From the NCBI GenBank assembly GCA_964187785.1, contig OZ076409.1:47556001-47620000 (forward strand): a DNA stretch of 64,000 nt, read 5' to 3'. Origin of the DNA: Amphiscolops sp. MND2022. Taxonomy: Eukaryota. The notes under the pieces are model-generated. The model ran no database searches, had not been told where the DNA came from, and saw only the letters and a program-made list of their open reading frames with translations. The position numbers were made by a program, and so were the translations under genes. Position 1 is the stretch's first letter; the number at the start of each line of letters is the position of its first letter. Shown here one piece after another: positions 3,875 to 53,482 of the stretch.

Positions 3875-4190
3875 TCCGTTCTTCCACGAGCAAAAAGACC
3901 TTCTTAATGGTGCAATTTGTGATAAAACGAAGTGTTTTCACAAGGTTTCAACGAAATCTCAATTCTAACAACGAAATCAGCTCTCAATACAGGTTTCTTT
4001 GTTCCTTTCTAACAATTCTTTTTATTCATTTGAACTGACGATTTCATCTCGGTAAAACTTTCGTTTTCTATTCCTCTACTTTTTATTCTTTTCTATTCCT
4101 CTTCTACTATTCCTCTTCTTTTTCAACAGTGATTCATCCCACTTATCTTTCCTTTCTTGAAAGTTCAAGACCTCTTTCACCTGGCCTTCG

Positions 4191-4844
4191 TTTTTAGTCG
4201 GCGCTTCATGAAGTGAAACGCGACTATTATAGTGGCTTTTCTTTTTTTTTCAATCCACACGAACTGACCAAAATAGTTCTTCAAAAGTTCTACAAATATT
4301 ATTGCACCAAATTGCACTATTTGGTCTAGCGAACTGAACCAAACCAAAAAAGTTTTTCCTGTTTTCCCGCGTAACATACCATACCCGGCAAGACCAAAGG
4401 GTCCCCCCTTCCAATTTTTGTTGGCACTATGAGACTTGTTTTCCGAAAAAATTTTCCCCCAAAGGGTCCCCCTTCAATTTTTTGCTGTTTTGCGACAGAA
4501 TGGATGTTGGAGAATCCCAAAGGTTCCCCCCTTTCAGTTTTTTTCCGAATATAAAAATTTTTCCCCCATCAATTTTTTGATGTTTTGCGACAAAACCCCT
4601 TCAACTGCGACAAAAATGTTGACAATTTCGGAAGTGTCCCCCTTTCAGCACGCCAGGGGCTCGCGCTAGCGGTCCCCGGCGCGCCACTCGGTCCATTTTT
4701 TTGGGTATGTAATTTTTCGAAATTTTTTTTTCGTAAAATTTTCGATTTTCGAGTACTGTAAAAGAGAATACTTGACACTTGGAAGTCTTTTTGCTCTTTT
4801 TGAGCCTTGGACATGGCGCCGACTTGGGCCGGTCCCGGCTTTTT
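4191..4844 (+). mobile_element. DINE-1/HINE-like (non-autonomous Helentron-type) repeat copy
   Basis: 5' TTTTT-AGTCGGCGCT followed by a partial inverted copy (ACGCGACT). 3' GGCGCCGACT followed by a short GC hairpin (GGGCCGGTCCCGGC) and a T-run. No TSD seen. Confidence 0.65.
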
Positions 4845-5319
4845 CAAACTCCAGTTTGAGCGTTTGACCAGATTGTAGGAACTATTTCTTCACCAAGACG
4901 TGTTTTTTCCCATCTGATGGTTGAGTCTAGCCCATTCGGCAGGAGAACTGCAAGGCTCTTAGTTGCCACGTTTTGGGTGTGCCGCTCAGCAGGTATTGCA
5001 AACACTGTTGCTTTCGAAGATGTGAATTTCTTTCATATTTCGTTCCCACTGTGGTTTGCCAATAGAACACATTGTCAATACGTTTGGTATCGATTCGCTA
5101 AGCTTCAACCGTTTTTTGAACTAGCCCAAAACCCAGTGTACACTCCCTAACCAGTTGAGCCCAGATTTTCCACTTCGAACACGTATTTCATTGGGTTGAT
5201 GAAGTAACCCAACCTGAGAGGATATTGTATACGCAAGTGTCCAAGTACTCCGGAATCAGATAAAACGAAAATACTTGGATTTTGCGCTTTTCGCTGAACT
5301 TATCTTCGTGTCAGGTGGT

Positions 5320-6800
5320 ATGGCAAGATGCCGCCTGCGATAGAAACCACTACCAAGTATCCTCAGATAGGGAAAAGTCTGTGATTCCTCCAGCAGTAAG
5401 TATCGTTCTTCGTACTGTTGTGGTGCTCGTATACTATTTATGTACATTTTTTATAAACCAGTGCAACTCGCTGATTTGAGTTAAAATCTAATTTGAAATG
5501 ATTTTGACGTCCTGTATTTCAATGCAGGAAACGATCCATCTCCTGGAGGCACGCTAAAAAAGACCGGAAATCTAGCATGTTTGACGCTTGGTCCGTTCTA
5601 GTTATTATCCAAACATATGCGCTCGTTTTTGTAGCCAGACGGACTACATCTCCATTGCGTTCGTTTGCACGCGCTGCTGCTCATGTAAAATAGTATCAAG
5701 TAATATTCAGTGTATTATATATAACATGTAGTAAACCCTTGACCTGTAAGGCCTGCCGCTTTTACTCCTTGCATTTTTTGATGACTCAATGCTTTTTGTA
5801 GTTCAAGCCAACGGTCATGTCTTCATGACGTCTTTTTGATGAATAATTTTTTAATAACGTGACATTCGTCGTTAATTTTTTCATGCGTTGTACCCTCTTA
5901 TTAGCCGATCCTGTAAAGCCATAGAAACATTGAATTCAGAACACTTTCATGATACACTCAAAGTATTGTGAAACTGATCTTACTTCTACCTAATTATTTT
6001 CCATTTTAACCGAATCAATATCACTCCTTAAACAGCATTCATTATTTGTGATGCATTCTACTAGAAAACGGAAAGTTAGAGAAAAGCGCTTTCGGCAATC
6101 AGATGCAGTGTCCGACTCAGGAATTGAGAACGTAATGATTGGAAACTTTCTAGAAAACTAATTTGAGAACGAATCAGTAGACAGAACAAGCCGGGACCGG
6201 CCCAAGTCGGCGCCATATCCAAGGCTCAAAAATAGCAAGATTTTTCATCCATTTTGTCGCAAAACAGCAAAAAAATTGAAGGTGGGACCCTTTGGAGAAA
6301 TTTTTTCCGCAAAAAAAGTCTCGCAGTGCCGAAAAAAAAGAAAGGGGAGACCCTTTGGACTCGCCGGGTATGGTATGTTACGCGGGAAAAAAGTGCAAAA
6401 AAATAGTGCAATTTGGTGCAATAATATTTTGTAGAACTTTTAAGAACTATTTTGGTCAGTTCGTGTGGATTGAAAAAAAATATAATAGTCGCGTTTCACT
6501 TCATGAAGCGCCGACTAAAAACCGAAGTACGCTTGAAGTGAGATATATGAAGGAGTACTATACAAAAGTTGACGAGTCGGTGATGAAGTCTAACAGCAGA
6601 GAAAACAGTGAAAGGATAGCTGAAACAGGTAGATTACTAAACATTAGCTGAGCTCAGAATAATAATGGCATTTATCCGGTTCCGGATCGAGGGAATTTTT
6701 AAGAGGTCAATCGGACGTGATGTCAAACGACTAAGCGCACTGATTGTCGACGAGCGTATTTAAAAAGAAATTTTCTTATACTTTAGGCAGGGCAGCGACG
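5320..6800 (+). mobile_element. Decayed LTR of the A/C-related gypsy group, interrupted by a HINE-like repeat
   Basis: Starts with ...GATGCCGCCTGCGATAGAAAC, like the other LTR starts. A gag-N-like remnant (NSRENSE...) at ~6070-6185 resumes at ~6523. Boundaries approximate. Confidence 0.45.
6185..6521 (-). mobile_element. DINE-1/HINE-like repeat copy
   Basis: ACAAGCCGGGACCGGCCCAAGTCGGCGCC ... TAGTCGCGTTTCACTTCATGAAGCGCCGACTAAAA, the reverse complement of the termini of the 4191-4844 copy. Confidence 0.65.
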
Positions 6801-7174
6801 TGGGCCGCTCACGATTTGTTTTTTTTTTCAGTTCTGCTAGAAATGAAGAGACTCAATGGCTCTTTTCTCGTTGTATTCATTGTTCGGTATGGCGTTTTCT
6901 GTTGAGTGTTGCTGATAATATCGATGAACTCAATTTTTCTGCTTTTCACTGACTGTGTTTGAAATAACAAGCCGGGAAGGCCCCAAGTTGGCGCCATATT
7001 TAAGGCTCAAAAATAGCAAAAAGACTTCAAAGTGTCAAGTACTTTCTTCTACAGTACTCGAATGAGGGAAAAATTTCCATTTTTTTCCGAAATTTTTTTG
7101 AAGTCTCCGGTAAGTCGCATAGTGCCGAAAAATGTGAGAAGGGGGCCCTTTGGGATTTTTTGAACTTCCATTCT

Positions 7175-9329
7175 TGTCGCAGGCTGCCGCCTGCAATGGA
7201 ACAATCATCACGACATCAGCTGACGGACAAAACATCGCACCCGGAACGCTTCCTACATTTTAATGTTAAAACTAAAAATTAACCAATCACAGTGCAGTAT
7301 AGCTAGTATTATCTCTCAGTAATACATTATTTGGCCGGTTATGGCCGCTTGCATTAATCTAACTACTGTGCTCGCACACGCTGGTCCAATGGCCGGTTCC
7401 GGCCTATTTAGCTTTCATCAAGTAATATGTGCTATTTAATCAGTAGTGCTGTGTATTTTCTTGGAAAGTACTTGAAGCTGTCTTAATACGTCAGATGCAA
7501 TGATTAAAGGTGTTAGAAGAATTGCTAATTGTTTTAATTATAGTTGCTATTGATAAAATCCTGTACCAGAAACGTCACTTGAGCACGCGGCCTTGTCCAA
7601 TCAAATTACTCCATTTGCTACGCAGTTAATACTTCCATTCATTAATGGCCGAATAAGGCTTGTGGACATAACGTTGCTACTGTTAATAAATATTCAGTCA
7701 AACGGCCGGTTACGGCCATTTCACATAAAGCACATTTGTGATGCTAATTGTTCTCACACTTAACTAGGATTCACGTGCTTGTATTCTTAGGCTAAATAAC
7801 CCCTCTAGTGCAGTATTACCTAACTATATCCCAAACTTAGCTCTTTCAGACGGTTAAGGCTGTTTGACCAGTATTTAATATTGATTACTTAGTACGGGGC
7901 AATTAGCCTATTCAGGCCACATTGTGTAAAGCGCTGTACACATTTTTGATTGATTGGCCGTATATGGCCACTTGACATTATATTAAGATTGGTAATGCAG
8001 GACAAATGGCAAATGGCCGGTTTAGGCTATTTTGCTTATTGTCATTAGAGATGCTTTTAAGCATGAATGAGTTTGTTTTACAGTCATGTAAGATTATATT
8101 TATGTACTTGAAGATGTTAATGAGCTTTTTAAATCCAATTAGTGCAATAATAACGACCAGTAGTAGCAATCCGAATACCCGTCACCTGTCCTATTCCGGC
8201 CTTCGCTATTGGCCAGCTTCCAAGTCCAATGGCCGTATCGGGACATATTACTATATTATGTTCATTTCTATTGCATGAAACTGTGTCTTTGTTTTGTTGA
8301 TTCTACGCACGTGTGTAGGCACGTGCCGCTAAATAGTTTACATTCCTCTCACTGTAAACAATTTGAAAGTATTAGTTTTTGATGTTTGGTCAAAGTGTTG
8401 TTTGCCTAATATAATAAGGCTAAATTCCTCCGCTTCCCTTTGATGATAGTATTTGCAGTTAGAAAATGCATTTGAGTGCATTCCATATTTTATGTAAACT
8501 TTAAATGATGTTGCTGCGAATGAACTAGGTATGTTTGTCCTTTGACCCTAACGGGACAAATTCCTAAAGAGCTTTGATGTAGTTGGCGCCGCTAAAAACG
8601 AATGAATGTTAGTGGTCACCCGCCATAGTCATGTGCCCTTTATGGAATCTGTAAATAGATTGTTATGCAAGGAATTTGAGTGTCACCCTCTCAGGGGTAT
8701 ATATATTAGTATTTTTCCCAAGAGGGACACAATTGTATTTTGCTTCTCCAAGTTTAGTTTGACATACCTGTTTACGATACAACGTACAAAATCCTAATTT
8801 CCCAACAAGATAATTCACTATTTTCGCTCGGACTTTCCTCAATGCATATTCAAAGAAAGAGGAGAAAGCTTAGACAGGAATCTTGCTAGAAGGCCCGAAA
8901 GTGCCATTAGCAATAACTTTGGAAATGACTATGAAAACATGTACTCAAGTCTACGAGTTGTCAGTACAGGGATAAATGCCGATTACGGCCAGAATTCAGT
9001 CGGAACTAGTTCTAATGCTGAGATTAACGGGTTGTTGAGCGAGTTGAACTCGAGGTTATCTAGAGAAGTGAATGGTATGATGAGTAGTGTCAATACCCAG
9101 ATCCACAGGGCAATTAGTGATGCAATTGATAGTCAAATATTGCCTCAGATTCAAACTGCCCTATATTCCGGATCGGGCCATTTGACACAAAATAGATGGA
9201 ACCTTCCGTCCGAGAGACCGGAAATTAATCCCGAAGAAAACTGCTCTAATAAAACTAGGAAAAACTCAAGAAGTGAGCAATTCCGTGATCGTCCACTTGA
9301 CGGAACCACAAATGCTAGTGCCTACGACA
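7175..9329 (+). mobile_element. Solo LTR (2155 bp) with 5-bp TSD ATTCT
   Basis: Termini TGTCGCAGGC...GCCTACGACA (inverted, 9/10). ATTCT at 7170-7174 and 9330-9334. Confidence 0.9.
8939..9329 (+). pseudogene. LTR-encoded gag N-terminal segment
   Basis: ELNSRLSREVNGMMSSVNTQIHRAISDAIDSQILPQIQ is homologous to ORFs 11267..11827 and 55545..55997. The frame is open to the LTR end with no stop inside the LTR. Confidence 0.7.
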
Positions 9330-10746: not shown

Positions 10747-11314
10747 TGTCGCAGGCGGCTGCCTGCGATAGAAATTGGTGATATGTGTCATACAACTACC
10801 ACAGAGAGTTCCGAGATACCGCCCCCTTGACTGACTGGTCACAACACCATTGTGAAACTCAAAAACTTTCATTTATTGGAACTGAATTTTAAAATTTCAC
10901 GCTTTGTACAAAGCTACAGGACTTTTCCATCCTAGATTAAATTCATCGCATCGCAAGAGAATGAAAATAGGAACATTAAAGCTATAAATGAAATGCCCAG
11001 ACATGATACTGTTGGAATCCACGGAAATCTCAGCTAATGAAATAAGTATGCGGACTTCTCAAGAAATGGATTCCCTATTGAAAACACTTCTCACTTTAAC
11101 AAGTCCATAAGTTCTGCAATCAGTGAAAGAGTTATCCCTGAGATACATAATATTATGGGTTCGCTGTCTTCAGGACAGAAAGACACTGAGTTCGGAGCGT
11201 CTGTTAATTAGCAAGATACTACCGAAAAAATATCTTGCTTAAATCTAAAAATGACAAAGAAGAATTCTAGACCTGTCTTTGATCTTCGGGACACTGGTGT
11301 CCTAAGTCCTTACT
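10747..11314 (+). mobile_element. Internally deleted solo LTR
   Basis: Starts TGTCGCAGGCGGCTGCCTGCGA. Ends with a gag-N remnant (SAISERVIPEI...DLRDTG) at ...CCTTACT. Flanks GTAAA (10742-10746) and GTAGA (11315-11319) are a 4/5 TSD. Confidence 0.7.
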
Positions 11315-11361: not shown

Positions 11362-11900
11362 TGTAAGAACTACAACCTGTGGTGTCTCTCAAATCTCCTA
11401 CGGACCTTGAGTCCTTCTTCGCGATCTTTATTTTAGGCCCTGGTGTGTTTTCCCTGTTCTCTTGACCATTAGGAGACATACAGGCCTCAGTGTCCCTGTG
11501 ACCTGTGGATGACATTGAGTTAACAATACTTTGAAACTCTGGAACAACTCTCTCAGCTATTGCAGTGGTAATAGCCCTGTTTATTTGATTATAAATCATG
11601 GACATCATTGAGTCACTTTCCTGAGACAACCTTAGATTAAACTCGTTAGAGAAAGTCTCAAAGGACTGTCTGACATCATTTTGCCTCAAAGAGTCATTTT
11701 CATATATAAATTCTCTGTACTCATTTCCATGGTACGTATTTGTATTTGCGTTCTCATGGGCTGATGACTGATCAATAGCATCAGTTAGTTCTCTTTCAAT
11801 GCGATTGTTATTCTCATTTCCCAACATTACGTCTAGGTATCAAAATCGGACATCATGTCCATCTCTCTAGATTTCCTGGGTTTTACCTTTTGTCTTCTTG
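11362..11900 (-). pseudogene. LTR-encoded gag N-terminal segment (element A)
   Basis: ORF 11267..11827 (NLRLSQESDSMMSMIYNQINRAITTAIAERVVPE) is homologous to the other LTR ORFs and is open to the LTR end. Confidence 0.7.
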
Positions 11901-12866
11901 TTGAAGGGATTAGAAATTGTTACAAGAGAAAAAAAATTATCTTTGGCTTGCAAATTTTGTGTGATATTACTGAGTAACTTTAACATGTAGGATCAATCAA
12001 AACTTTGTCCCCGGGACCAATTGTCCCGGCTATAAATATTAGATTCTACATGACAACCAATATTTCAACTGTCATATTCTAAAAATAGCCTTGAGGGCTT
12101 TCTAAATATAGTAACAGCTATAAATAGCAACAGTGACATCATTATGATGTAAGCAACTTCAAAGAACATTCCCGACGGTCAGCAGACTGATGATATGGCG
12201 GGAAGCCCGTAGGCCTACAAGACTGAGCAACAGCATACATATACAAAGTAAAGCAAAATACATGCATTTCAACACTTCATAAGATCACATGTGATGTATT
12301 AGTAACGCGCTATATTTCGTCAATAAAAGGTCTTTTGGAACTAAATGTCTATTTTTTGAACAATTAATGGTTTCTCTAGTATCCAAGTAGTAGCGCTTGT
12401 TAGTTGCGCCTTTAATTTGAAAGTGAACTCCGTGTCCAGTCGACATAATAGTACTCGCTTTTTTGTTGACAGGCGGCACATGGCCGTCTAGTCCATTGAT
12501 CAAAGCACCCCGTGATGTATTGAACAAAAACACCGGTATTAGAATACTGCACTCTGATTGTCTGATAGCTTATTCGGACTCGTTGTCCAAGGCGACAGGC
12601 AAGGAAACATTTGAACGCGTTTCCTATACCCGTACGCCTTGGTGTCCAATTTACTAACAACGTATAATTAGCGCCAGTATTACGTAATACTAAATCACGT
12701 TTTAAATGATATTTTGTATTAAAATATAAGAGCTACATGACTTCTACGGTATAAATACAGTTTTCTATTTGAAAGTTCTTATTTAAGGGGATTGTGTTGG
12801 GTTGAGCCTTCTGGTAATCGTGGCAGGTAGAGTATAGATTACCATCACTGGCGGACGCCTGGGACA
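11362..12866 (-). repeat. 3' LTR of element A
   Basis: On -, starts TGTCCCAGGC right after PPT AGGGGGAG and ends ...TTCTTACA. Terminal sequence aligns with 57181-57277 (CTGGTAATC...ATTxCxTCACxGGCGGxxGCCTGxGACA) and shares CATTTGAACGCGTTTCC. Confidence 0.8.
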
Positions 12867-13615
12867 CTCCCCCTGGGATTAACATGAAGCAGCCTTCTTT
12901 CGTCCCTTCTAAGAACGCCAGTCTTCTTGCATTGAATTGCTCTGGAGATTCCCCCAAATGGCTGTTTTGTGTAGGTAATCAATTACCGCTTCGTCCTGGA
13001 TCTGTTTGACTGATTTTCCACAAATTAGGCAGTTTGTGCAGCCCATGATGTAAGAGTTGTCATCGCCGCTAGGTTCTTTAAAGTGGATACCACTTGGACA
13101 TTGCTGATTGTTATTTGTAGTTGTCTCTGCCACTGCTCTGCAGTCACCTGTTGGGTACTTGTCCACAGCGGGGGTGACAATGGTGTATCCACCATCGGGA
13201 TCAATTGGCTACAAATATTGATTGGGTGTTCGTTTCTCAATCTCGGGTCCCTTGCTACTGGCCCTCTCCCCATTCCTAAGTCAAAATATCCGGCGTTGAA
13301 CATAGGTCCGGGGATGTACGAGAGCCTGGAATTCTCCGCATAATTTTCTTCCTGCTTGCTTGAGCATGAGGGTACTGGGATGCTCTCAGAGGCTGCCGGG
13401 AGCTCCATCTGCGTTTCTACACACTGTGCTAGCATGGCCACCTTATCATCGTCGGACAAACTGTCCAGATCGTCTACTGACGCACTGCTTGCACTTTCCA
13501 TCTCGTCCTCGCTGGATATATAGATTATCCCGTCTCCAGGGGCCGCTCCTGGAAAGTCTTCTGGGTAGTACTCAGGGGACTCCAGGTCGAAGTGACTTGA
13601 CAAGAACTTGTCCAT
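12733..13615 (-). pseudogene. Accessory sense ORF3 (SIM-like IIYISSEDE, CxxCxxCGK), frameshifted, C-terminus inside LTR
   Basis: ORFs 13025..13615, 12909..13166 and 12733..12957 join by frameshifts. Homologous to 32131-32795 (B) and 40920-41945 (C). Confidence 0.75.
12867..12874 (-). promoter_or_regulatory. Polypurine tract of element A
   Basis: AGGGGGAG on - immediately 5' of the LTR TG. Confidence 0.7.
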
Positions 13616-14916
13616 AATTATATTCTTAGCAATTTTGGAAAAGATTTATCAATTTTGAGTTTTTGGTTTTGAGAAAGCAACTGATCGCCGAGAAAGACAC
13701 TGAAACAATGGCGATCTTCCCCTACGCCAACTTGCGGGAGTTTCGTTTCAGTTTCCCGGGGTTTCGCGTTTCCCCCGATGGATAAATTTTCAATAACATA
13801 ATTCCTTCTTTATAAAATCTTTTAACTAGTCGCTCTGTCTTCTTTGATAATGCCGATCATGGTCTTGCTGGCTTACATCAACTCTGTCAACGCAACGCTT
13901 CCATATTAAGAGCGTCGCTTTAAGTGTTTATTAACACTCATCTAGCACTTGAGGGTTTCAAGAGGATGAATATATGGCAGTCCGCCACACCGTCCACCAC
14001 CAATCTGATCAGCCAATAGGAATGCAGCCTAACTCCCTCCAAGTTAAAATGGCTCCTCAAGGTCGTAAATCCATATAAGGAATAATGTAAAATGACCTTG
14101 AAACTAAAAAAAAAATAATAAAATCATGAAATAATTTATAAAAAGGTAAAGTTTCGAATTAAATAAATAGATGTAGATATCGCTGGCAGAGGCTATCCAC
14201 ATAAAGGCGTAAATTGTAAATAACTTTAAATTTGACTCCAAACTGTATAAGCACGAACTCCAATTTCGACATCTTGTCACATTACCGATTCAACTTCTAA
14301 TTCTTTACATTCAATTCCGCATCGTATTATTCTTTCTTCTTATCCAGTATTTAATCACTGTCGTATATACCATCATCAGTGTTTGTTCGATAATTAGTCA
14401 ATAAGTCTTTCATTGTTTTTATTTATATTCTTCTTTACCATCATCTTCTTCTTGGGACTCCAATTGCCCTCACTCGTGTGGGTTTTCTAGGATTTTACCG
14501 GACAATCGACATCCAGTCCCTTTCTTGGCATCCCCAGCTAGCTTAAATTTTCGTTCTTCCCCCAACGAGACAGATCGTCAGTCAAATTCTGGGAACACTC
14601 TGGTTGCTCCAGACAATTGTGCCCAAATTCCAAACATCTATATTGCAGCAAATTCCTTTCACAGACTTTTTGTCTTCTTTGCAACATCTGGATTAATTCT
14701 GATTGCTTCACAGTACCAAGTAAGTTGATGTTCTTCTGAGTTCGAACAAGAATTAGGCTTGATTAGGGCTCTAATCACTTTCGTAGACTTCCTGTCCAAG
14801 TAACACAAGTGTTCACAAGTGTTCAAACGAATCTACTTCCAGAAGATTTTCTAACGCGGTAAATGGACTCTAATTCAGGAAAGTTCCCGCTTGATCTTTT
14901 CTCTTTTTATTTAGAC

Positions 14917-17900
14917 ATGTCGTCAGAGAATATAACAGAAGAGAACACCTCATAGCTTCCTAGTACAGCAGAAAACGAACAGCCATCAAATCCAGCTTTG
15001 AATGCAATTACAGCAACACAAGCTAGCAATCAAGAAGCCTCTGGAACTAGTCGTGAAGCACCACTCCCAGTCCTTCCACAGAAGAAAATGTTAGTGCCTA
15101 TGTCGAACGGACACTGCAAGAATTAGGCCAACATCCAGAGGGGCGTTTCCTTTCGGCTCCAAAAGCTGAGAAGGAAATCCAACCGTTGGCACCAGGGGTC
15201 CCAAAAGCATCTGTGTCCGATGTAGTTATCGAGGCCTTCACTAGAATGGAAAGCATCCCGGATGATGAAATGGACATCGACAAACCTGATGATGAAATGA
15301 GTGAGACAAGCCGTTTCAAGCTCAAAGCAGACTTCTTTCAAACTGACACAAGCGAGGTCGAGGACTTGTACGATAGCGTAGGCGCAGACACTACGACCAA
15401 CAAGCCTACCCTGATAGCTCCAACGGTCGTTGATCCAAATGCACCGAGCCACGAAGACCCAGGTGGGGTCCAATTGGATGATATTGCCAGTGTAGTAACG
15501 AGGGCGCGCCTCCCAAAGGACACTTCTGCTCTCACCGTCCCAGGACGAGCCTTGCTCAAAAAATACTTTTCTGAAGCACCACCAGTTCGTTTGCCCATTG
15601 CCCATCGGACATTGGCCCTCAGTGAATCTCAAGTTCACACCTTGATGAAAGTCGTCTCGGACGAGGCCGATGCTTCGTCCCTCCGTACAGTTCAGGCATT
15701 GGTCAGCGAAACTTTGAAGGCGGGAGGACGGTTGTACAGCGGAGGACTCGTCCCTAGTGGAACTCGCCCAACGCGCAGCATTTCTGAGAGTTCTGGAGAG
15801 GACCTTAGCCGAGGAGGTCACACCACGGACGATTACTCCAGTGGGGCCCTCAGCTCTTATGATGAGTTTTTCGCGAGATTTTTAGGCAAGTCAAGCTACC
15901 CCTAGTGCCCGCCAGTGATCAGCCTTCGACGTCTGTCCCGACTAGGCCAGAAGGAATAGCACTAGTCCTGGGTTCACTGCTTCTGACTGTCCGCCACTGG
16001 CTCAGTTGCGTCCGACTCCAGAGGGGCCAAGTACCCCAAGGCCAGTTTGTAAGCGGAGGAGGATGGCTGGATCCACAGGCAAAGTCATAAAGGGGGCCAA
16101 TTTTGAGGGTATCAAACGGACCAGGACCTTCGTGACCGGACCCCTTGATCCCGAACAAAACAGGCATCAGTTCTATTGCCAAATATTCAAGGCCAACATA
16201 TCAATCTTTTCGAAGGGGGCACGCGAGATTGCCAGACACTATCAGTCCGAATCACACCTTCGCAAAGATCAACGTTGAAGATTTGAACATCTACGAAGTG
16301 TCGACAAAGTCACTAGGCAAATCAGACCGTGGCAAAGGTGAAGTCCGTGGCAAAGACGGACGGGTCTTAACTGCACTAGAAATGGAGAAAGAAAAGCCAT
16401 TATTTGAGAACGCCGTTTTAGTGGACATTGGGGACAAACACCTGTTCTACAATGACTACATAGCTGGAGGTACTTCATCATTTAGTTTTGAAGAAACCAG
16501 ACTCTGCACACAGTCTTCCTTAATCGGGTACTTTGTTCCTCGAGGTGGTGACGTCCTCGTCTTGCAGGCTTTGTGGAACCAAGTGAGCATTGCGGCCAAC
16601 CACAAAGAACCTTTCTCACCTCTTGACTGGGGAGCAACAACATTGACTGTAAATATCTACTTCCTTTGAAATGTAGACTCTTAGGTACCACATTCTTTTA
16701 TTGACACAATTAGTCCCTTTTGGTTCTAGACTATCTTCCACCACGACTTCCTCTGTGGCATGAGTGACATTGCACATCACGTTAACAACTCTGGCAAGTA
16801 CTCCCTCGAATTCGAGTCTGTGGACATGCAATGCGTGGTCTCTATTCGCTTCTGGAAAGGGGACCACCTGTCCACAGTCCGTCTCTTGCGTTACCGCCTT
16901 GCTAGTGAACATGCCGCAGGAATGTTGACTGCCGTAGCCCGAATTTTCTCTTTCTTGTCAGTACAGCCACAGATAGTCAGTGTGTCAGGGTGTCCTTCCG
17001 AGCTGATTCCAGTATTGGAGCAGTCTAAGCTCTTGACCAAGGGAATACAATACCCTTTCCGATTTGCCTAAAATTATGCATCAGCGCTGGGGAAGTGTCT
17101 TCGGGGGCATCAACTTCTTTTCCCAGCTTCGTTTCCTGATCACGATCCTGGATGGCTGTCAGGACCAAGTCTGGGCCACTCAGTCGCCAGAACTCAGCAA
17201 GGTAAATATAGACTTGTCCTCCTATGGGGGGAATGACTAGATGGTCACAATTTTGTTTTGATTCTTCCGTTTTGGCAATCTCAACTTGCAAGCTGGAAAT
17301 CACGTCCACACTCGCAATCTTATCAGAGTTTCTAGCTGACTGGAAGGCCGTGCGAGATTTCATGACGCGTATTGCTCCTACACAAGAGAACCAAGGTGTA
17401 CGGCATAGGCCCCAGAGTCAGGAGTGGAACATCATCGGGGATGAATTCTTTCATTTTAAATTTGAAGTCTTTGGCCGAATTGCCCGTGATTGTTAGTATT
17501 TTCCAACTGGTATAAACAAGTACAAATGTTAGCATGTGCTCATATATAAGTAGTTCTTGAATTGTGTTAGTAGGATTGAAGGTCAATGTGTCATGCGCTG
17601 GCATAATTTAAATGGTATTGTTATCTTTACAGACATCAAGTGCTTTGAGGGCAGTCTCTCACGACGAAAGGAATCCAGTTTCGTCACATATCGGGAATTA
17701 CGGCATTTCATTCGGAAACTGTGCTACCAATCCTTACTACCCAAACATTCGCCGGGTGAATCAGATTGGGCAAGGTTGTCCGCCTTGCAAGGACAAACCC
17801 TCACACAGCTCTCCAGTCGGGATTTCCTCCATCGGCTCAAGTTGAATGAGATCTAGATGCTGCTTGTCGGATTCGTGCTTAACAAGAAATCGATGATCAA

Positions 17901-18781
17901 CAGAGCGTGCATACAGACTTTGAGGCCGCTGTAGAGTCGATCAAGGAAGAATTCGTTGTTGAAGCACGAAATTATCTGGTCTTCCTGCTCGAGCGATTTC
18001 TAGTTGACATCACCTTCAATTCTGACATGGTCAATGGCATGAGTTGTTTCGACCCTGTGGTTCTTATATCAGTGCCATACGAGCAGGCTGCTCTATAATT
18101 CTCAACACTCTACTATTCTTTTAGTCTCCGCGAGTGGATGGTCAATACTCCTGAGGTCGAGGCCCGGGACGAGTACCTCGAGTTTCTGGACTTCTTCCGC
18201 AATAAGAGGACTTCCGAGATGCCCCTGAGACCTTTACTGACATGATCGAATTGCTTTCCCCTATTCCTGAGCTGAGATCTTGCAAACATCTCTTCTTTCT
18301 TTTTCAGCTAAGCTGTCTCTGTCTGACTTCGCAACTTCCCACTTTGCCTGCTTTTAGATTTCAAGGGGTAGACAGCAGTGATCATCGTTGTCGAAAGTCC
18401 GACGTCATCCTCCCTGCCCATTCGTATCTTTCCCATGTAGTTGGGTCAGTTGCAGTGTGTACCGCCGAAGCCTGGCTGGACAAATATCGAGAACTTGAAT
18501 CTAGCTTCGCTGAAGGGAATGTTGCTGGTAACCCCTGGGTCCATATAAATAGTTTCGGTGAACTCAACCTCCAAAAGGCTCTCATTTCTGCCCGAAAGGC
18601 TTTACGAGAGAAGCCACGATCCTCAAGTCGATCTCCCGCCTCATCAGTATCCAGCACTGGGGGGCGCCCAGGCAATCGGTGTCCGAGTAAGAACAAGAAA
18701 GGAGTGAAATTTGGAACTACCTCCTTTTCTGATACGCCCGCACCTAATGAAGCCTTGCTGCCAGGAAGCAGTGAAGACTAA
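14917..18781 (+). pseudogene. Antisense spliced accessory gene: acidic/disordered N-terminus, BED-like Zn finger, hAT-transposase-like body
   Basis: ATG after TTTAG|AC. FYCQIFKANISIFSKGAREIARHYQSESH; YSLEFESVDMQCVVSIRFW; EEFVVEARNYLVFLLERF...NGMSCFDP. Intron 16649-16729 joins ORF 16145 in frame to ORF 16760. Homologs in B and C. Confidence 0.8.
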
Positions 18782-19006
18782 ATGTACATAGTGTACATTT
18801 GTTTGGTAGCTGAATGATTTTGTATTCATTATGATATCTATGTCTCCTTTGTTTGTTTTATATTTTGACGTTATCTGTTGTATTTCTAGGCCGTCTGGCC
18901 TATTCGACATTGTCTTCGTTTGTGTATAGTCAGTAAAGTCCAGTAAAGAATAGTAAGTCAGTTTGTCAGTCTACAAGACTAACTGGACGCTAATTTACAT
19001 ATCTTG

Positions 19007-22000
19007 CTAGTATCTGTTTTCTTCAATAAAGTTGGGGTTGGGGTTAAGTCGAAGAACTTATTTCCCTCCTCTAAGGCTAGAAGTTTCTTCATTTTTTTCA
19101 TTTTCCAATATTCCGGGCACGGTTATATCTGCGCCTCCATTTGAAGCAATTTCCGTGTTTTCTAAATCATTAGTGACGTCTTTTTCATTTTGAGTCCCAT
19201 TAGTCGGTTCATTCAGTGGTGACGACAGGCCTCGGCTATTATCTGGCTGCGTTCGTATTTCATTCTCGTTGACGTCATCTTCGTTCATTCGTTCGTTGCA
19301 GCTTTCATTCTCGCTTGCGCTGCTGCGTTAATTCTCGATGACGTAATGGTCCAAGCTGTCTTTCTCGTTATCGGTCGGCCGGCATGCATGTGGCCACGTC
19401 AGTCCAATCTTCTTTTCTCGGTTCAAACAATTCGTATTCAAAGTCCACTTCCCATGAGATAGAGTACAAGTCGTCTTGTGGTATTACTATCTCATTGTCG
19501 GGTTGTAATTTTTCGCCATCATATTTGTCCTCTAAGGGGGCATTCGGTACAAATTTTTTATATCTAATACGATGAAGTGTTTGCGTTTTGTTTGTATTTA
19601 ATCGACGCACCATGTAATTGTCGCTGGACAGTACTTTTTTAACGACAAACGGGCCAATCCACCTGTATTCCCTGATTCGGATTTTTGATGCTTGACTATC
19701 CGGTTTAGTTTGTAGGACAAAACAGTATTCCTTGTCTCTCAGCGGAGCAGCTTTGGCCTTCCGGTCGTAATAGTTCTTGTATTTCGAATAGGACTGCATT
19801 AATTTCTTTTTGGTTTGATCAATGAGGATTTGTGTCCTCTGTTGTACTTCTTCCGCAAATTCCGTAGTTGGCAAGAAATTTTTATTGGGATTGTTTCCCA
19901 ATTTATGATCAAGGATGTTGAAGGGAATTCGGCCATGGAAGACTTTACTACGCTCACATCCAATACTGGAATGGTATGTAGTATTATAGTTGAGCACAGA
20001 CAATGGCAGGTATTTGTGCCATTGTCGTCGATATTCCCCTGAGGCCATTTTCAAATTGGTCTTCAGTGAGGCGTGCGTCCTTTCAAGCTTGCCCATTGTT
20101 TGCGGGTGCTTTGTAGTGGCGCATTTAAGTGTTATTCCCAAGATTTGAGTTGATTCAGCTATGATGGTCGATGTAAATGCGGACCTTTGTCCGTAATGTG
20201 AGTTGTCGGTAAATATGAATGTTTGTCATGATGTCTAATATCACATTGGCTACATTTGTTGCTGTCGCTTCACTTAGAAAGTAGGCAAATAGGTATCTTG
20301 ATAAGACATCAATGGCTTTCATTTTCTATCTGGTATCCGCTGCTGGTTGGTAGATTTGGTAATCAATCAATTAGCATGGCATCTTCAGGACCGAAGTCCC
20401 ATTCTGGCAAATTTACCAATTCAGGTGTAATGGTATTATTAGGGACTCTCTTGTCTCTGGCACACGTTTCACAGCCTTCGGCCCATTTCTTGACATGTTT
20501 TGCTATGCCAGGGTAGTCGTATGTTTGGTGAATTTCCTGTAGCATTTTAGAAGTGCCTGGATGTCGATGTGCCCTGCCATGTATTGCATGCATTAATTCT
20601 TTCAGCAGATGTTTGGGTAGTAAAATCTGGTGGTATTTGATTTGTTCTGTTTCATCGTAATACTGTCTTGTCACAATTTCGTCCTTGAGGACTATTCGGT
20701 CCAAATCATTCAAGTAATGTTTATATCGGATGCCCTGTTTTAGGATTTCTTCAGAGTATTCTTCGTTCTGAATTTTTGCTTTCAGCTGAAGCAAGATCGG
20801 ATCTTTGGATTGTTCTAACAGTATTTGGTTTGTTCTGCGTAGTTTCTGAGTGAAACTGGTAATTCGTCTATTACATTCTCAGAAATGGCATCGATTTGGA
20901 TGACGGTCTCCGCGACCTTGAGTCCTGCTTTTGATTGCCTTTTCTTTTCCCAAATTTGTTCTTCTGTTTCATTGTCTTCTTCGGTAAAAAACACTTGCTC
21001 TTCAGACACGCCGGCTGATTGGATATTGACTCCAATAGGTTTTGTTTCAACGTCTGCGCGTATTTTCAGGACCAACTTTTCAGTGGGATCCATTTCCATA
21101 CGGGACAGGTAGTCCGCTGCTGTATTGTTCTTGCCTGGAATATGAGCTATAGTGAAATTGAACTGAATGACAAAACCGCAAGCATTCGATAGTGGCGGTG
21201 GTATTATCTTGTGACCGATTTGTTATCCGCAAGGACAATTACTGGTTTGGGTGTTCCCCAGAGTATATGTCCGAATTCTGTGAAGGCGCATTATATGGCT
21301 AGGAATTTCTTCGCATGTATTGACATTTTAGGCTGGGAAGGAATAAAAGTTTCCGAGCCATAGGCAATAGGCGCATAGGATTTTTTGACTGAAGTATTTT
21401 TCTGGTTTGGATCGTCTTCGGTAAGAATAGCATATCCTGCTGCTATGAAGCTGGCATCTGTCATCAGGACTAGTTGTCGATTTGGCAGTGGCTGCCTCAG
21501 AGCTAGCTGGCTGCATCGATCCAAATCTCTATTGATTTCATTGAATTGTTCGACCAATTCTGTTGTTACTAAGACCTTCTTGTCCTTCTTAAGTAGTTGA
21601 AAGAAAGGAACCAGTTTTTCTGACATTCTCGTTATAGAGTTTCTGTAATAGTTGAAGAATACAAAGTATCGTTGCAAGGCTTTTTTGGATTGTGGGAATT
21701 TCGTTTTTTTCCTAGGAAAATGGTATTGCTTTCTTTTTGAGGCTTTACGCCCTCAGTGGTGATTGTGCTCCCTAGGAAGTCAATTTCAGTTGCTCCAAAA
21801 TGACATTTGTGCATGATCTATTTTGATCCTGCCTCCCTGATGCTTTCAAACGTTGCTCAGAGGTTTTTGATCAAATGTTCGGCATCGTTTGTCGCTATGC
21901 CAATATCGTCGACATATTGTGCGCACTGGTTGACCTTGATAACACGGTCCAAGTATTCTCTCATGAAACTGGAGAAGGCCAACAGGGCTCGACTGAGTCC

Positions 22001-22306
22001 TTGTGCCAATCTTCTGTAAGCGAATGTTCTGCTGGCAATGTTGAAGGCCAGCATTTCAATGGACCTTTGGTCCGCCATCTGAAGGCAGTGATACGCCTGC
22101 GAACAGTTTACGAAAAAGCTTTTTCACGGCCATGTGTTGCGCGGCGTCCGTCAGGGTACTGACTGGATGGTTGTTATTGATGTAGTCATCACAGATTAGG
22201 TTATTGATCTTCCTGAGGTCAACCAGCAGTCGTAGTTTTCCAATGGTCTTCTTTTGCGCAAAAATAGTACTGGCGTACTTTGAGAATGGTAATGTAGTTA
22301 TACCAC
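19007..22306 (-). pseudogene. pol: Gypsy pol (RT, RNase H, integrase), frameshifted
   Basis: LRLLVDLRKIN, CAQYVDDIGIA (RT). LMTDASFIAAGYAIL (RNase H). HGRAHRHPG...CETC (IN Zn finger). HPQTMGKLERTH (IN core). WIGPF (GPY/F). Confidence 0.95.
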
Positions 22307-24955: not shown

Positions 24956-25121
24956 TCAGAAACGCTAAAATTAGTTCCTTTACTCTAATTTCCCGAAAAG
25001 ACATGTTTTTTCACTGGAACTTATCTGACTTACTATTCTGATAGACCGACTGTCTAAATACAGAAACAAATAATATAAAACAGAAATTCACAAAATGGAG
25101 AGTCTAGATAGCAAATGTACT

Positions 25122-28100
25122 CTATGTACATTTAGTCGTTAGAGCTACTTTCACGAAGTCTTGCACAGTCTTTGAGAGCTCACCTTGGGGAATATCACCA
25201 AAGTAGACTAACTTTCGAGCCTTCCACGGGGCCCAAATGAGTTTCTTCCAACAGAGGTTGACACAGAGGAAGATCGAGAAGCTGTACTGACTTCCAGGAC
25301 AGGAACCCTTGAGACCCTTGAAAGAAGCGGGCAGAGTTTTTAAAATTGAAGAACTTCCGAAGGTGTCCACATGAGACCATAGGTCTCCCGATAATAGCCC
25401 TGAGTTGAAATGTAACTCTAGTTCTTCATATTTAACCAACGCAGACTCAGAAGTACAGACTGCAATGGCAACAGGACAATTAGACAAATAAGATTGAGCA
25501 GGCAATATGACAATTGAAAGATGGCAATGTTGGCTCGAAGTATCTACATGCTGGAATTAGACGGCGGGAAGTTTTTTGTGGCTCTCAGTAATGCAAAGAC
25601 AACACAAACGATACAGGTGAAAATGTTTGAAGCAGCTACGCAGAGCTGGCATTGAAGTCAAAAGATCGAGAACATCAGGAATAGTGCCGGCTGCGTTCTT
25701 GATACCGGAATAGGCGATACTCAAGTATTCAACGAATTCGAAGTACTCGTCCCTGTAGTCGCTCAACGAGGCCTCAGACACCCAACCTTGAAGCCGGAAG
25801 CTGTCATAGAGGGCGTTAAAGCAGAAAGAGAATTGGTCTAGAGCTAGGGAAAGCAGCACGTATGGATCGAAACAAGCCATGCCGTGGACAAGATCAGCGT
25901 TGAAGTGGATGTCTTGCAACAGTGATTCCAATAGTGACACAATGTAATCGCGGGCCTTCACAAGAAAGCTCTCCTTCTCAGCTGCGTCAACCTCTTCCAA
26001 ATCAGGTGGCCCAGTATTCTTGTCGGAGTACGAGCGGCGGACCTAAGAACCTCAGGCTGCCTCGAAATCTGTTTTGAGCTTGAGCCGATGAGCAAAGTCC
26101 CGAGAGATTGTCTGGCCACAGATGAAGCAACCCAGTCCAGCTAACGTCGTCACTGATGAATTTGAGTAAATTGGCACGACAACATAGCTTTCTCACAAAT
26201 CGGCAGTACTGTCCGTAGATGAAGAAAGTAGCGTCTCGTCGACCAGCCAGGGTGCGGTCGAATTCTTTTGCATCTAAAGATGACGTGCAAACAAAGTAAT
26301 ATCAAATTTGAAGAGGTTGTCGTGGAACAATGTGGGACACTTCAGCCATAAGGCCGAAAAGGGCCTTCAGAGGAGAGAAGATCAAAGAACTCACAAAGTG
26401 TATAAAAGAAAGCAACTCAAAATCTCGAACTAGGAATTAGAGGAATTCCAGCTTGACTGTGAAGAGATCGTCCATAATGATAGTCCATTCAAGTTTCTGT
26501 GGCTGAAAAAGAAACAATTAACTTATGATGGGATTCCATAGAAATAACCGATTTACCCAAACGGAACGACTGTCGAATCGGCCCTACAAGATGAAGTTCA
26601 AGAATAAATTTTGGAATGATTACCTTCTTCTTAACTCCTTGCATCAATTGTGTGGGGGCTATCTTTATTATGTGATGCTGAATGGATTGCCACTAATCCC
26701 CATTTCTGCACAAAAAGAAGGTATCCGCTTGAGCTCTAGCTTACTGTTGTCAACAGCCTACAACGAGAAAGGGTGGATCAATACCCAAATAATTAGTGTA
26801 CATTTGTAAAAGGCCAAAGAAGTCTGCTTGAAGAAAGAGAACTTAATTAGCTAGTTTAACGAACAGGAAAGCAAACCTTGGTGAGTTCAGGGGACTGCGG
26901 AGCCCAGGGCTGGCTCAAACAACCACTCAGGAAGGCAACCAGATAGTTAATCTGAGAGAAGGTGTCTATTAGCCCACAGACGTAACAGGTCTCCAGGACG
27001 TTGGGGTGCACAAACTCCTGCAGGGAGTAGACACCGAAAATAAAGGGGTACTGGATCCCATGATCGTACAGTCTGGATGTTTCTAAAGATTGAAACAACA
27101 TTGAGTAGCAGCTGGAAATGCTGACGAGGTTGGGCTTCAACGGCACAAAGGAAAGGAGGCAAGAGATGGCTCCCAAGTAACTTCCTGGATAAGACTCATC
27201 CGACAGTGTCGGTGGAGCTCAACTCGGACGAGGGAGTCCTCTCTCCAGTATCCGATAGACATACATCTGGACATGCCCTGGTTGGTGAAGTCGATAGAGT
27301 ACATATTAGACTTAGTGAAGTGACGGGCTATGTCTTCGAGACCACGTATGAAATAAAACAAGACAAATTTATATGTGCAGTATGAAACCGGAACTGTCGA
27401 GACGGCCACTGGGGCAAACGTACTCATATAAAGAAGACAACTCACCGTGAAACTAGCCAACACTCACTCGAAAAACGAAAACAGAGCGTGATGGTTCGTG
27501 AACATGCCAACTTTGGTCCAGAGACTTTGCAGTAATCATAAATTCCCGTCTCGAGGCACGAACACTCCAATGGAGATCAGAGTGCTACTCCTCAGTTCGT
27601 CTGGGTTGGTGATGCCGCATAGACTAGCCATGTAATCATCATAAAAGGGAAAGCGATCCCCTGCATCATCAAATGGTACTTCTAGGAAGCGTGGCTTCTC
27701 CCCTTCAAGTTCTTTGGCCGTCAGGACGTATCCGTCTTTTCCTCTGACTTGTTGAGTGGTGATCCCAGTAACCCCATCAGTTTCTTGTAAGTGGACAAAT
27801 CTCCACTTCTGGTCCTTTCGAAGGTGTCCTTCAGTTTTGTAGTGCCTTAGGATCTCCCGAGCACCTATTGAGTATATAGACATATTGGTCTTGCAGAGCA
27901 TACAATAAAAATTTGTATTTATTGTGGATGGGGTCAAGGGGGGAAACGGAGGTCCTTGTCCATTCTTCATCACCTTTCCTGGCCTGCTCAGTAACTTCCG
28001 TCTCTTCCGTGGGGGCTAGGGCCAGTGTCGGCAGTTACTCCAACCCGTCCAAGAGTAGACAGTGGCTGGTAGTCAGTGGGGCTGTATCCAGTTCCTGATG

Positions 28101-31100
28101 CTGGCGTGACATTCCTAATGTCGGCCGAAGTGGTCGGCTGTCCTGCTTGTCTTTCCACAACTCTGAATAGGGGATCAGTCTCGTTGGCAGTCTCAGCCCC
28201 TGATATTGAGCCAAGGTTGTAGGGTCCTTGTCTGAATTGAAGACCCCGGTGTTGTAATCATCAGTGGTGTTCCCCCTCCATGCTGGTCTTGTCACCAAAA
28301 CTTTCAGTGTAAGTTCGGGCCGATGTGGCACAACGCTGTTGGTATCCCTCGCGCATATCTCGGGGAGCCCCTGTGTAGAATGGAGTAACAAGGACTTGAT
28401 ATGATAGGAGGAAGTCACCAACTCCTCAGCGATGGTCCTGAAAATGGCATGCATTTCTTCTTCATTAAGACAAATAGTTGGATGTCCAACTGGTAGTTTT
28501 AAGAGACGGATCTCGCTGAAATACTTCTTTGTGATTGCTTTTTCCCTTTCCAGTCAATTGTGTATCGGCCAAGGATCCCTCTCAGCGTCACTGTCTTCAG
28601 ATTCACTGTGGAAGTTGCCTTTGTACTCAGTGATGCTGCAGGACATTACAGTGTCAAAAGTGGGTTAACACGCTTTTGTGCTATCAAGTAACCGAAATCC
28701 ACTGACGCATTATTAAACATGAATTTCAATGATTTTCAATGGATTCCGCTGTAGCCTGTTTTTGATTCCACTGACATATCTAGCTAATGGACAAAAATGC
28801 GTAGCCAAAAAGTTCGCTGAAAAGTGCAGTGGAATCCACTTCGACTTACAGTGCATTCCACTTTGGCTTGCACCCACTTCCACTTTGGCGTGCAGTCGAT
28901 TCCACTTTTCAACTTTTGGAATTGACTGCAAAACGAGTGGAATTGACTGTAAGCCAAAATGGAATTCACAACACGGTGAGAAACGTTCGTAATCCACTTA
29001 AATCATGTAACATTTAAACCATGATAAATTAGTTTTGAACGCTCAAATCCTGTGAAAATGTGTTGATTATGTGAAAGCTGAATATTTTGAATGTATCTCA
29101 AACGAACACGTGAAATAACACAAGAATGAAACAAGAATAAAAATTTGAAACTTCTTCTTTCGAATTTTTCATGTTGGTTTGCTTTAATGTATCTCTCAAA
29201 CTAACACGTGGATAACCACGTTATTGGAAGACTTTCAACTTTTTTCCTTTGTCAAAGAATAGGGAAATTGGGGGTGAACAAAGATTGTATCTCAATTATA
29301 AACTGTTCCTCTGGAAATACATTTAAAATTGAAGGATTTTGGTTTGTATTCAAGTCTTTTTGTTATGTTTATTACCGTCGACTTCGGCTAATCGAATACT
29401 GGCGGGACCGGTGAAAAATATTCGATTCAGCGAAATATTCGATTAAACGAAACCATGCTAGTACACGGGATATTCTACCTTCTGAGCAGCTCGGTTTTTA
29501 TTACATTACCCCATCGCCAAACAACTTTTCCAGGAACGTGAAGATTCCCAGCCGAAATTTGGCTGATGTAATTGTCGGAACACTCCGTTTATAAAACAAT
29601 CATCTTTTCGTTGTTGTGTATTCAATTGTGCAATACTTTCGCTTGAATTTCACCTGCGATTTTGTATTTAAAAATTGATTGCCACAGATACAATTTTTTC
29701 TCAAAATACGGAAACAAAACACCGTGAATAACAAATTCAGTGAACCCTTGCAACGTCTTTCTCACCGAAATCCGGATGAGGGTTTTATTGAGAACAATAA
29801 GCTGTTTTTCATTCATCATTCAACTTGTTATTCAATTTGATCTTTTGGTATCCACCATGAAGTAATTGAAAAATGAAAACCAATTATACCTAAAGTACAC
29901 GCAAGAGCTGAGTGTGAATTTTTGTAGAGTGGTGGTAGAATTGATAAGGTCTCCGTTGCGGTCAGCTTGGAAGTATGCTTGACGGGACTGGAACTAAAAA
30001 ACGATATCCACTATGAGGTAGATGAAAAATGAAACCTGATTATACCTAAAGTACACGCAAGAGCTGTCTGTGAAATTTTGATGTCCACTATGATTCAATC
30101 GAAGAATTAAAAAATGAAGCGGTAAGGTGGTGCGAGTATCAGAATAACTTGATTGACATAATTCTATAGTAATAAATTTGAACTAAATGAAGAAATTCAG
30201 AACCTTTTTTGTTACACTTGCTGATTCTGAAAATGTTTCTCATTCGCAAAAGTGAACACGCGAAGGAAGAACTTTTCAGCACTGAAGTTCATGAACTCTG
30301 ATTCTATTTGATTGTTGATATTTTTTGAATGTTGATATTTAAAGAATTCAGTGAATTCCACTAAAAAACTGCAGTGGAGTACACTACAGCCAATGGTGGG
30401 TTCCACTGCGGCCATCGGCGGAATCCACGGCAGCGTTCAGTGGAATCCACGGCAGTGTTAAGTGGAATCCACTGCAAGATCCGAATGTTTAAGGTATTTG
30501 ATAGTGGAATCCAATGCTTTACAGCGGAATTCGCTGTGAAGAAATCTGCAAGAAAGTGGAAACGACTGCAGCGTAACAGAATTTGTAGGTGGATTACGAG
30601 GCACGCTTTCCAAAACTGCCGTCCAGCAAAACAAAATCCACTGCAAAAATTTTAGACCCATTTTTGGCACTGTAATGGATCAATAGTCATATCGGTCGAT
30701 GCAGGTGGAAAGGCTCCAACGCCCGAATTGTCAAATAGCTCCTCGACATTACTGGTATTTGCATACAGCGCTTTTGTTTCTGTGCAAGGAAAAACTTCCT
30801 TCCCGGTAGATGTCCCTGGCAGGTCTTCTCGAGAATCTTGAAGCACAGTAATAGGATCTGAGACGGATACCCTATGGAAAATGGAATTTTTGGAACAGCT
30901 GATTACTGTGGATCCAGTTGGTGGCGGGAAGGCCTTGACGGTCTCAGTTTCGAGAGGTGCCATGGAAGAGACAGTTCTCTCGATAAAAGCAGGGAAGCTC
31001 TCATCGGTGGACTTGCTACTATGTGAATCCTCTGAAGAAGGCCGATTAGGGACGGTTGGTTCTGGTATTTCTTCAAGTACTTCTCTCTCTCTCTCTTGAT

Positions 31101-53311: not shown

Positions 53312-53482
53312 GTCCTTATCACAAAGAAATCCTTCAATGTACTGTAGTAACCAATACATATTCACATATACATTCACACACGGGTGCATATATCTGGTTA
53401 ACATAACGACATATAAGTACAGTCATTCATGACTAACTCCATTAACGCTCAAATGCGCAATACCACAAATTGTGTACTTTCA

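Follow-up and report, generated by a model that had tools for sequence, protein, structure and literature searches.

ORF3, a sense-strand gene located between pol and the 3' long terminal repeat (LTR) of Ty3/Gypsy retrotransposons in the window (the whole 64-kb stretch of DNA analyzed here), is a conserved gene with many intact copies, and its reading frame continues through the polypurine tract (PPT) into the U3 region of the LTR. In the searches made, its products are a protein family without a Pfam or PDB match. The N terminus contains a motif that resembles a phosphorylated SUMO-interacting motif (SIM), and our tentative reading, which is quite possible, is that the ORF3 product acts as a nuclear SUMO-docking regulator that keeps its own element transcribed.

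The window is repeat-rich eukaryotic DNA containing several LTR retrotransposons, all of them decayed. The elements designated A, B, and C are Ty3/Gypsy LTR retrotransposons, as seen in the order of their domains and in their LTRs, PPT, primer-binding site (PBS), and duplications. The RNase H-integrase part of pol in the 5'-truncated element A (19371 to 22300, minus strand) matches Pfam RT_RNaseH and then Integrase_H2C2, while element C has a weak Ty3_capsid match (E 0.0096) followed by RT/RNase H. The structural matches of a reverse transcriptase (RT) piece are foamy virus RT and Ty3 RT. Element C possesses an LTR pair (5' LTR, 52063 to 53311; 3' LTR, 39518 to 40965; both minus strand), a PBS-like TGG after the 5' LTR, and a flanking 5-bp duplication, AGGAC. 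The five bases preceding its 3' LTR (40966 to 40970) are the same as this target-site duplication (53312 to 53316 and 39513 to 39517). The two LTRs of C are 98% identical over the first 517 bp and 91% identical over the remainder, a step that suggests partial gene conversion. The 3' LTR of A spans 11383 to 12866 (minus strand), and its far end (11383), placed without a target-site duplication as a check, is tentative. Elements A and B, each 5' truncated in pol, meet head to head at 22300, and their junction is a large inverted repeat with 69% identity over 2.2 kb.

The LTRs are long (1.2 to 2.2 kb), and their 3' part codes for a gag-like N-terminal stretch of about 200 amino acids (52063 to 52700, 39518 to 40100, 11383 to 11839, and 55548 to 56200 on the minus strand; 8798 to 9329 on the plus strand). 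Since the start of the LTR codes for the tail of ORF3, the LTR is coding at both ends. In element C, the gag frame encloses both the end of the LTR and the PBS-like TGG. The window also contains dispersed short non-LTR repeats with inverted arms that are similar to MITEs (4186 to 7175, 37900 to 39030, and 57480 to 58970), another such repeat pair (34168 to 34380 and 38039 to 38249), and, at its end (63185 to 63781, plus strand), a gag-like ORF that belongs to another retroelement family and has no Pfam match.

The layout is common to all three elements: pol is followed by remnants of a long antisense ORF, ORF2, and then by the sense-strand ORF3. The ORF2 remnants of A lie head to head with ORF3 (15057 to 18800, plus strand; extent approximate), and those of B and C are found at 25100 to 31150 (minus strand) and 43879 to 47573 (plus strand), respectively. 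ORF2 contains a CxxC...HxxxxxH motif that by eye resembles a BED finger, and the ORF2 pieces compared with Pfam had no match; it is possibly a larger uncharacterized gene of these elements. ORF2 and ORF3 diverge with approximately 1.4 kb between them, and short blocks are common to the regions upstream of ORF3 in A, B, and L001, from which we infer an internal promoter or a spliced RNA. Just 5' of the ORF3 start, the residues KIAKK or KIAKN are read in frame (13616 to 13645, minus strand; 32160 to 32190, plus strand; and just upstream of the ORF3 start in L001). This stretch recurs with different third positions and could represent either an unrecognized extension of the N terminus or a signal in the RNA.

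Every ORF3 copy in the window is broken. ORF3 of A (12781 to 13615, minus strand) is homologous to intact relatives of 278 to 279 amino acids and is 71 to 86% identical to one of them (P0008) in three pieces, with frameshifts near 13170 and near 12955. The SIM-like motif, CxxCGK, and GVSQ of A each lie in a different frame, and therefore the continuous ORF3 frame is drawn from the intact relatives only. The frame of A reads on past the family stop to 12733, which the first-pass annotation took as the end of the gene; the relatives stop at the codon matching 12781, making that end about 16 codons too long. The SIM-like motif of A, IIYISSEDE (13502 to 13528, minus strand), consists of a hydrophobic core and Ser-Ser-acid in a CK2-type context. 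It is followed by DTPLSPP (13169 to 13189, minus strand), an example of a conserved [DE][ST]PxSP motif, and by the CxxCGK knuckle (13014 to 13031, minus strand), behind which a helix hairpin is predicted. ORF3 of B (32194 to 32795, plus strand; 59% identity to P0157 over 154 amino acids) has an in-frame stop near 32510 and a frameshift near 32640 and ends directly after CGKS, with unrelated sequence beyond. ORF3 of C (40919 to 41981, minus strand) belongs to a distant branch whose intact members have about 340 to 360 amino acids; its start is broken, and it contains frameshifts near 41600 and 41440 as well as in-frame stops. The SIM-like motifs IVCLSSDEEE of B (32248 to 32277, plus strand) and IIDVSSDSGDE of C (41921 to 41889, minus strand) were found where the first-pass annotation had placed them, as was that of A. 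The CxxCGK that it described after the motif is present in A (from 13031) and B (32775, plus strand), while that of C is interrupted by a stop at 41131.

Intact relatives of ORF3 are numerous. The N-terminal piece of A had 85 matches among 181 candidates, and ORF3 clusters of 138, 128, 163, 66, and 39 members, some of them partial, were recovered. A profile search returned 423 representatives at the 50% level (E<=0.001; the best 150 of the 423 inspected), and a broader profile returned 147 among 5250 candidates (the best 120 of the 147 inspected). The piece from C found 15 proteins among 389 candidates, the full-length ones having 338 to 363 amino acids, and the homology between the C branch and the A/B group extends over 69 C-terminal columns only (probability 98.8). 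A set of 162 of 474 proteins, each with a Met start, the knuckle, the tail Cys, and 165 or more residues upstream, was kept as intact, the other 312 being partial or broken, and was placed in 36 groups at 70% identity. Intact proteins have 250 to 290 amino acids outside of the distant branch. No Pfam family was reached at cut-off by three ORF3 pieces or seven intact proteins. Among the relatives listed, none has been named, and they come from ENA assemblies and once from JGI. Some subfamilies are found on contigs of 1 to 4 kb, and two loci from metagenomes (2 of 197 pattern matches) have the same ORF3/LTR junction, which suggests that ORF3 elements may be present in other hosts. Viral contigs yielded no copy (0 of 33).

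The ORF3 frame crosses the PPT and the start of the LTR at one and the same codon wherever DNA was seen. In A the PPT (12867 to 12874, minus strand) codes for Gly-Gly-Val of ORF3, and the frame reads G-V-S-Q with the LTR TG at 12866, while in C it reads G-L-S-Q with the TG at 40965; the Gly-Val/Leu preceding the LTR-coded residues SQAAAC is coded by the PPT. The shared crossing codon had been noticed previously, and it is borne out in that the A and C junctions occupy the same alignment column, and the 64 columns between the first Cys and the tail contain no gaps. The solo LTR at 7175 (7175 to 9329, plus strand; 5-bp duplication ATTCT) begins with SQAAAC, as had been reported, and its first 28 codons correspond to the ORF3 tail up to the family stop position. 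SQAAAC is also read at the start of a shortened LTR (10747 to 10830, plus strand), where the tail has one in-frame stop, and SQAAAR is read at an LTR start at 57277 (57191 to 57277, minus strand), where a 28-codon tail is followed by a stop. The 5' LTR of C carries the same ORF3 tail. Beyond the LTR start, the tail has 27 to 30 residues in 30 of the 36 groups, 11 to 14 residues in five groups (three from the C branch), and 58 residues in one group. The overlap with U3 is therefore about 90 nt, as measured from the stop position in relatives, rather than the 130 bp or so given by the first-pass annotation; in C it is about 45 nt (14 codons), and in A the first 90 nt or so of the 3' LTR are the ORF3 tail.

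The U3 part of ORF3 shows a codon pattern. Among four LTRs of the window, mismatches at the first, second, and third codon positions number 64/56/107 over codons 1 to 27 (permutation p=5e-5) and 56/56/93 over codons 7 to 27 (p=1e-4), and beyond the stop they are 110/113/114 (p=0.42); the comparison is ungapped, includes one LTR with an in-frame stop, and covers an after-stop part that barely aligns. When the LTRs were compared with gaps, 2 of 18 segments past the stop had p<0.05 versus 4 of 6 inside the coding part. The codon-level conservation sought in U3 is thus seen as an excess of third-position mismatches within the ORF3 codons and none beyond the stop, where the control is weak because the sequence barely aligns and has scattered weak similarity. 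The first 17 nt are letter-for-letter identical in four of six LTRs, and for this reason the SQAAAC block is by itself weak evidence of selection on the protein. Integrase specificity has been located in the terminal 8 to 15 bp (PMC3601003, as far as that account extends), and the fixed 17 nt appear to be conserved as DNA too, as expected of an integrase end. The SQAAAC block would thus be doubly constrained, as DNA and probably as protein. It is likely that the overlap persists because the PPT and the integrase end are fixed as DNA and the protein tail is built upon both.

The SIM-like motif is conserved in most of the family. A strict form, with V, I, or L at no fewer than three of four core positions followed by Ser-Ser-acid, is found in each of the three window copies as well as in 131 of the 162 intact proteins and is absent from 31, a proportion to be read with a bias toward motif-bearing relatives since the initial searches were seeded with the N terminus. 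It is the majority form in 23 of the 36 groups, where about one is expected from shuffled sequences; the groups are related, and the counts are a measure of conservation and not of independent origins. The strict motif is not rare by itself (14 matches when the window is translated in six frames, including 3 in the ORF3 copies), and its weight therefore comes from its conservation. Five DNA copies use different codons beneath the motif, indicating that the constraint acts on the protein. The Ser-Ser is invariant in all 25 rows of a balanced alignment, and in the C branch the motif sits at this same position near the N terminus, though that region is unalignable. In a tree of C-terminal halves (37 rows), nine groups without the strict core form one branch (support 100/99), and four further scattered rows also do not have it. 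This branch, which includes a 46-member cluster, keeps Ser-Ser-acid, and in several of its members an L-V-S-L stretch lies three residues upstream and may be the core in a shifted position. Ser-Ser-acid is more conserved than the hydrophobic core, and the core-less clade counts against an essential SIM. The SIM-like motif described in the first-pass annotation is conserved across proteins of approximately 25 to 50% identity, and its strict core is lacking in one nine-group clade. The motif, including its CK2 context, fits the SIM definition given in PMC12751080, which describes SIMs as loose motifs in the part consulted. A psi-K-x-E site of any kind occurs in 4 of 21 proteins, and none is conserved.

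The ORF3 protein is predicted to be disordered and acidic at its N terminus, to contain the [ST]PxSP motif and a CxxC knuckle accompanied by a helix hairpin, and to have no membrane segment. The N-terminal 75 residues have a net charge of -7 to -19 in 21 proteins. In the AlphaFold2 (AF2) model, pLDDT is about 52 to 56 over residues 1 to 50 and 89 to 98 over residues 201 to 240. Residues 1 to 54, which include the motif region, have low pLDDT and no secondary structure; an amphipathic helix is predicted at 55 to 71 and a confident hairpin (15 plus 18 residues) at 202 to 241 behind the knuckle. The chain is otherwise mostly of low confidence (pTM 0.32 at full length and 0.38 for the C-terminal 159 residues). 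The [DE][ST]PxSP motif occurs in 150 of the 162 intact proteins, the C branch included. The S-P-x-S-P spacing is that of the RNA polymerase II CTD heptad, making the motif a candidate site for CTD-like docking or mimicry. The best 19-residue hydropathy is 0.82 to 1.61 in 21 proteins of 260 to 363 amino acids, and 1.6 is the threshold for a transmembrane segment; 20 of the 21 have no segment of that strength, and the value of 1.61 is borderline. Invariant positions in the 25-row alignment are the two knuckle Cys, a single His and a single Cys upstream, and the Cys coded in U3. The CxxC-hairpin domain may bind zinc, with the invariant His and the U3-coded Cys as candidate further ligands; a homodimer with zinc, modeled without an alignment, scored 0.19.

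Fold searches used low-confidence models, and their negative results do not imply that the ORF3 fold is new. The best E value in BFVD was 0.18, Foldseek against the PDB gave no match at E<=0.001, and the weak Foldseek rows include several RNA polymerase chains of about 65 amino acids (RPB10/RpoN-like; E 2.4 to 9.9, rmsd 9 to 11). VIA-align reached at best Z 5.2 (rmsd 2.6, 45 residues aligned) with generic hairpins only, the other parts being barely covered. The ESM Atlas returned no usable feature match for P0079 or P0177, and its structure rows had TM<=0.30 on a poor model. Neither a clear nuclear localization signal nor a DNA-binding fold was seen (models with pTM 0.32 to 0.38). Mimicry of histone H2B was considered and rejected, as the weak matches (E 0.017 to 1.4) vanish with a broader profile, and a histone fold with a long central helix was also rejected, the model having a 15 plus 18 residue hairpin instead. 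The N-terminal helix was also compared by eye with LxCxE and BC-box motifs, and both readings were discarded, the Cys and the spacing being variable.

The acidic arm, phospho-SIM-like motif, proline-directed phosphosite pair, and Cys/His domain place ORF3 nearer to viral nuclear regulators than to envelope or fusion proteins. In the tentative reading, ORF3 would be made from a subgenomic RNA, either from an internal promoter between ORF2 and ORF3 or by splicing, and its product would be located in the nucleus as an adaptor. There it is predicted to dock on SUMO through the CK2-type phospho-SIM, and this docking would hold the element's own promoter in an active state in spite of SUMO-dependent silencing, with activation as the presumed net effect. 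In Drosophila, piRNA-guided silencing of transposons depends on SUMO, as described in bioRxiv 533091. The link between SUMO and silencing is drawn from flies, worms, and mammals; the host of the ORF3 elements is presumably an animal. The phospho-SIM of the cytomegalovirus (CMV) transactivator IE2 supports transactivation and is enhanced by CK2, according to the part of bioRxiv 655282 consulted. A more specific version, which is unlikely, is that ORF3 is a SUMO reader that neutralizes SUMO-dependent chromatin silencing of its own element with a zinc domain completed by the Cys of the integrase end. One DNA stretch would then be primer, attachment site, and metal ligand together.

A nuclear regulator could also act independently of SUMO, as an acidic transactivator similar to Tas or Tax or as a self-repressor, with the motif serving as a CK2 site or acidic activation region. 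The better conservation of Ser-Ser-acid than of the hydrophobic core, the whole clade without the strict core, the strongly acidic N terminus, and the predicted amphipathic helix at 55 to 71 all fit such a protein, but a kinase site would not need V, I, or L to occupy three of the four core positions, as is the case in 23 of 36 groups and again in the C branch, whose N terminus does not align, and the upstream L-V-S-L may be a shifted core; we regard this explanation as rather improbable. Another candidate role for ORF3 is that of a cofactor of replication or integration that joins the particle or the preintegration complex, tethers it to (possibly SUMOylated) chromatin, and guides nuclear entry or target choice with no role in transcription. 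ORF3 is intact in many high-copy subfamilies and has a small adaptor-like build of short motifs and one small domain, but it is encoded separately, beyond an antisense ORF, and has no evident route into particles, and no nucleic-acid-binding fold was seen in the models, leaving the cofactor improbable too. Several short conserved motifs in disorder and a nef-like position would suit an adaptor like Nef, Vif, or ICP0 that redirects or degrades a host defense protein, with the SIM and SPxSP as docking or degron-like sites. The Cys/His set of ORF3 resembles the zinc sites of viral adaptors, and the N terminus of Nef is Met-Gly. Such an adaptor is quite unlikely for ORF3, in which there is no RING and one CxxC only, the BC-box-like Cys varies by eye across subfamilies, and the aligned intact proteins do not have an N-terminal Met-Gly.

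The position of ORF3 upstream of the 3' LTR is that of env, which would be expected of a protein that, by acting like an envelope or by fusing cells, lets the element spread between cells. The hydropathy values given above (20 of 21 proteins below transmembrane strength, one borderline at 1.61), the acidic N terminus, the lack of a signal peptide by eye, and the absence of the hallmarks of sORF2 and FAST proteins make that role very improbable. Hardly any probability attaches to the view that ORF3 is a chance frame coding for no functional protein, its conserved tail being a DNA constraint of the PPT and integrase end. In its favor, none of the three copies in the window is intact and 17 nt are shared exactly by four of six LTRs, in agreement with the terminal location of integrase specificity described in PMC3601003. 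It is contradicted by the many intact copies across 25 to 50% identity with a fixed stop and by the third-position excess over codons 7 to 27 (p=1e-4), which lies outside of the fixed end.

The phospho-SIM-like motif in a conserved Gypsy gene makes ORF3 a concrete candidate for anti-silencing. A 2019 review lists three transposon-encoded anti-silencing mechanisms, all from plants, in the part consulted (PMC6719617), and the SUMO-reader interpretation, if true, would provide an anti-silencing factor outside of plants. Even without a link to SUMO, ORF3 is a family unmatched in Pfam and the PDB with a retrovirus-style overlap of gene and U3 in a Gypsy lineage. The layout of an antisense ORF2, a sense ORF3, and LTRs coding at both ends recalls complex retroviruses. 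A literature search found no account of ORF3, nor of a Gypsy ORF that contains a SIM or extends into U3; its coverage was incomplete and did not extend to repeat databases, and an earlier description is possible.

The overlap had been likened to nef and sag, and the likeness is one of position in U3 only. No match to Nef or Sag was found in Pfam at cut-off or by Foldseek at E<=0.001 with low-confidence models. HIV-1 nef and mouse mammary tumor virus (MMTV) sag/rem are, as described in PMC12789967, accessory genes before the 3' LTR with a frame into U3. ORF3 differs from nef and sag in having a Ty3/Gypsy host element with no env seen and 14 to 30 codons in U3, whereas MMTV sag lies wholly within U3. 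ORF3 has no Met-Gly start, no membrane segment, and no sequence similarity found to Nef or Sag, the latter having a type II membrane segment (PMC12789967, in part). The foamy virus genes tas and bel-2 are regulatory genes that directly precede the 3' LTR and are served by an internal promoter, according to PMC7828637, and ORF3 likely needs a similar subgenomic RNA. No homology was found between them, and for ORF3 both the promoter and transactivation are presumed. CMV IE2, ICP0, K-bZIP, and LANA share with ORF3 a hydrophobic core, CK2-type serines, and acid (PMC12751080 and bioRxiv 655282, as far as these describe them), but they are unrelated, and binding and function have been measured for IE2, whereas the ORF3 SIM is predicted from sequence.

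Among transposons, sORF1 and sORF2 of the Drosophila MDG1 group are also accessory ORFs of animal Gypsy-type elements, sORF1 being nuclear and of unknown function (PMC11952523, as far as described there). Unlike ORF3, they are located upstream of gag and have about 110 and 70 amino acids (PMC11952523). In the same account sORF2 is a membrane fusogen, often myristoylated, and no LTR overlap is described for either within the part consulted (PMC11952523). The plant Retand, Grande, and RIRE2 elements (TRP28) have, like the elements with ORF2, a long region from pol to the 3' LTR with conserved antisense ORFs, for which a regulatory role has been proposed (PMC11963269). They are a plant lineage, and no sense ORF into U3 is described in the portion of PMC11963269 consulted; TRP28 had no Pfam match among the pieces and proteins compared here. 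Foamy virus tas/bel-2, MDG1 sORF1, the Retand antisense ORFs, and VANC of the VANDAL DNA transposons appear to be analogues of the ORFs studied here, none homologous as far as compared. VANC acts in plant DNA transposons on DNA methylation through sequence motifs, unlike ORF3, and no homology with it was seen (PMC6719617, in part). As a transposon-encoded accessory protein opposing host silencing, as described in PMC6719617, VANC may by analogy serve as the functional model for the anti-silencing reading of ORF3.
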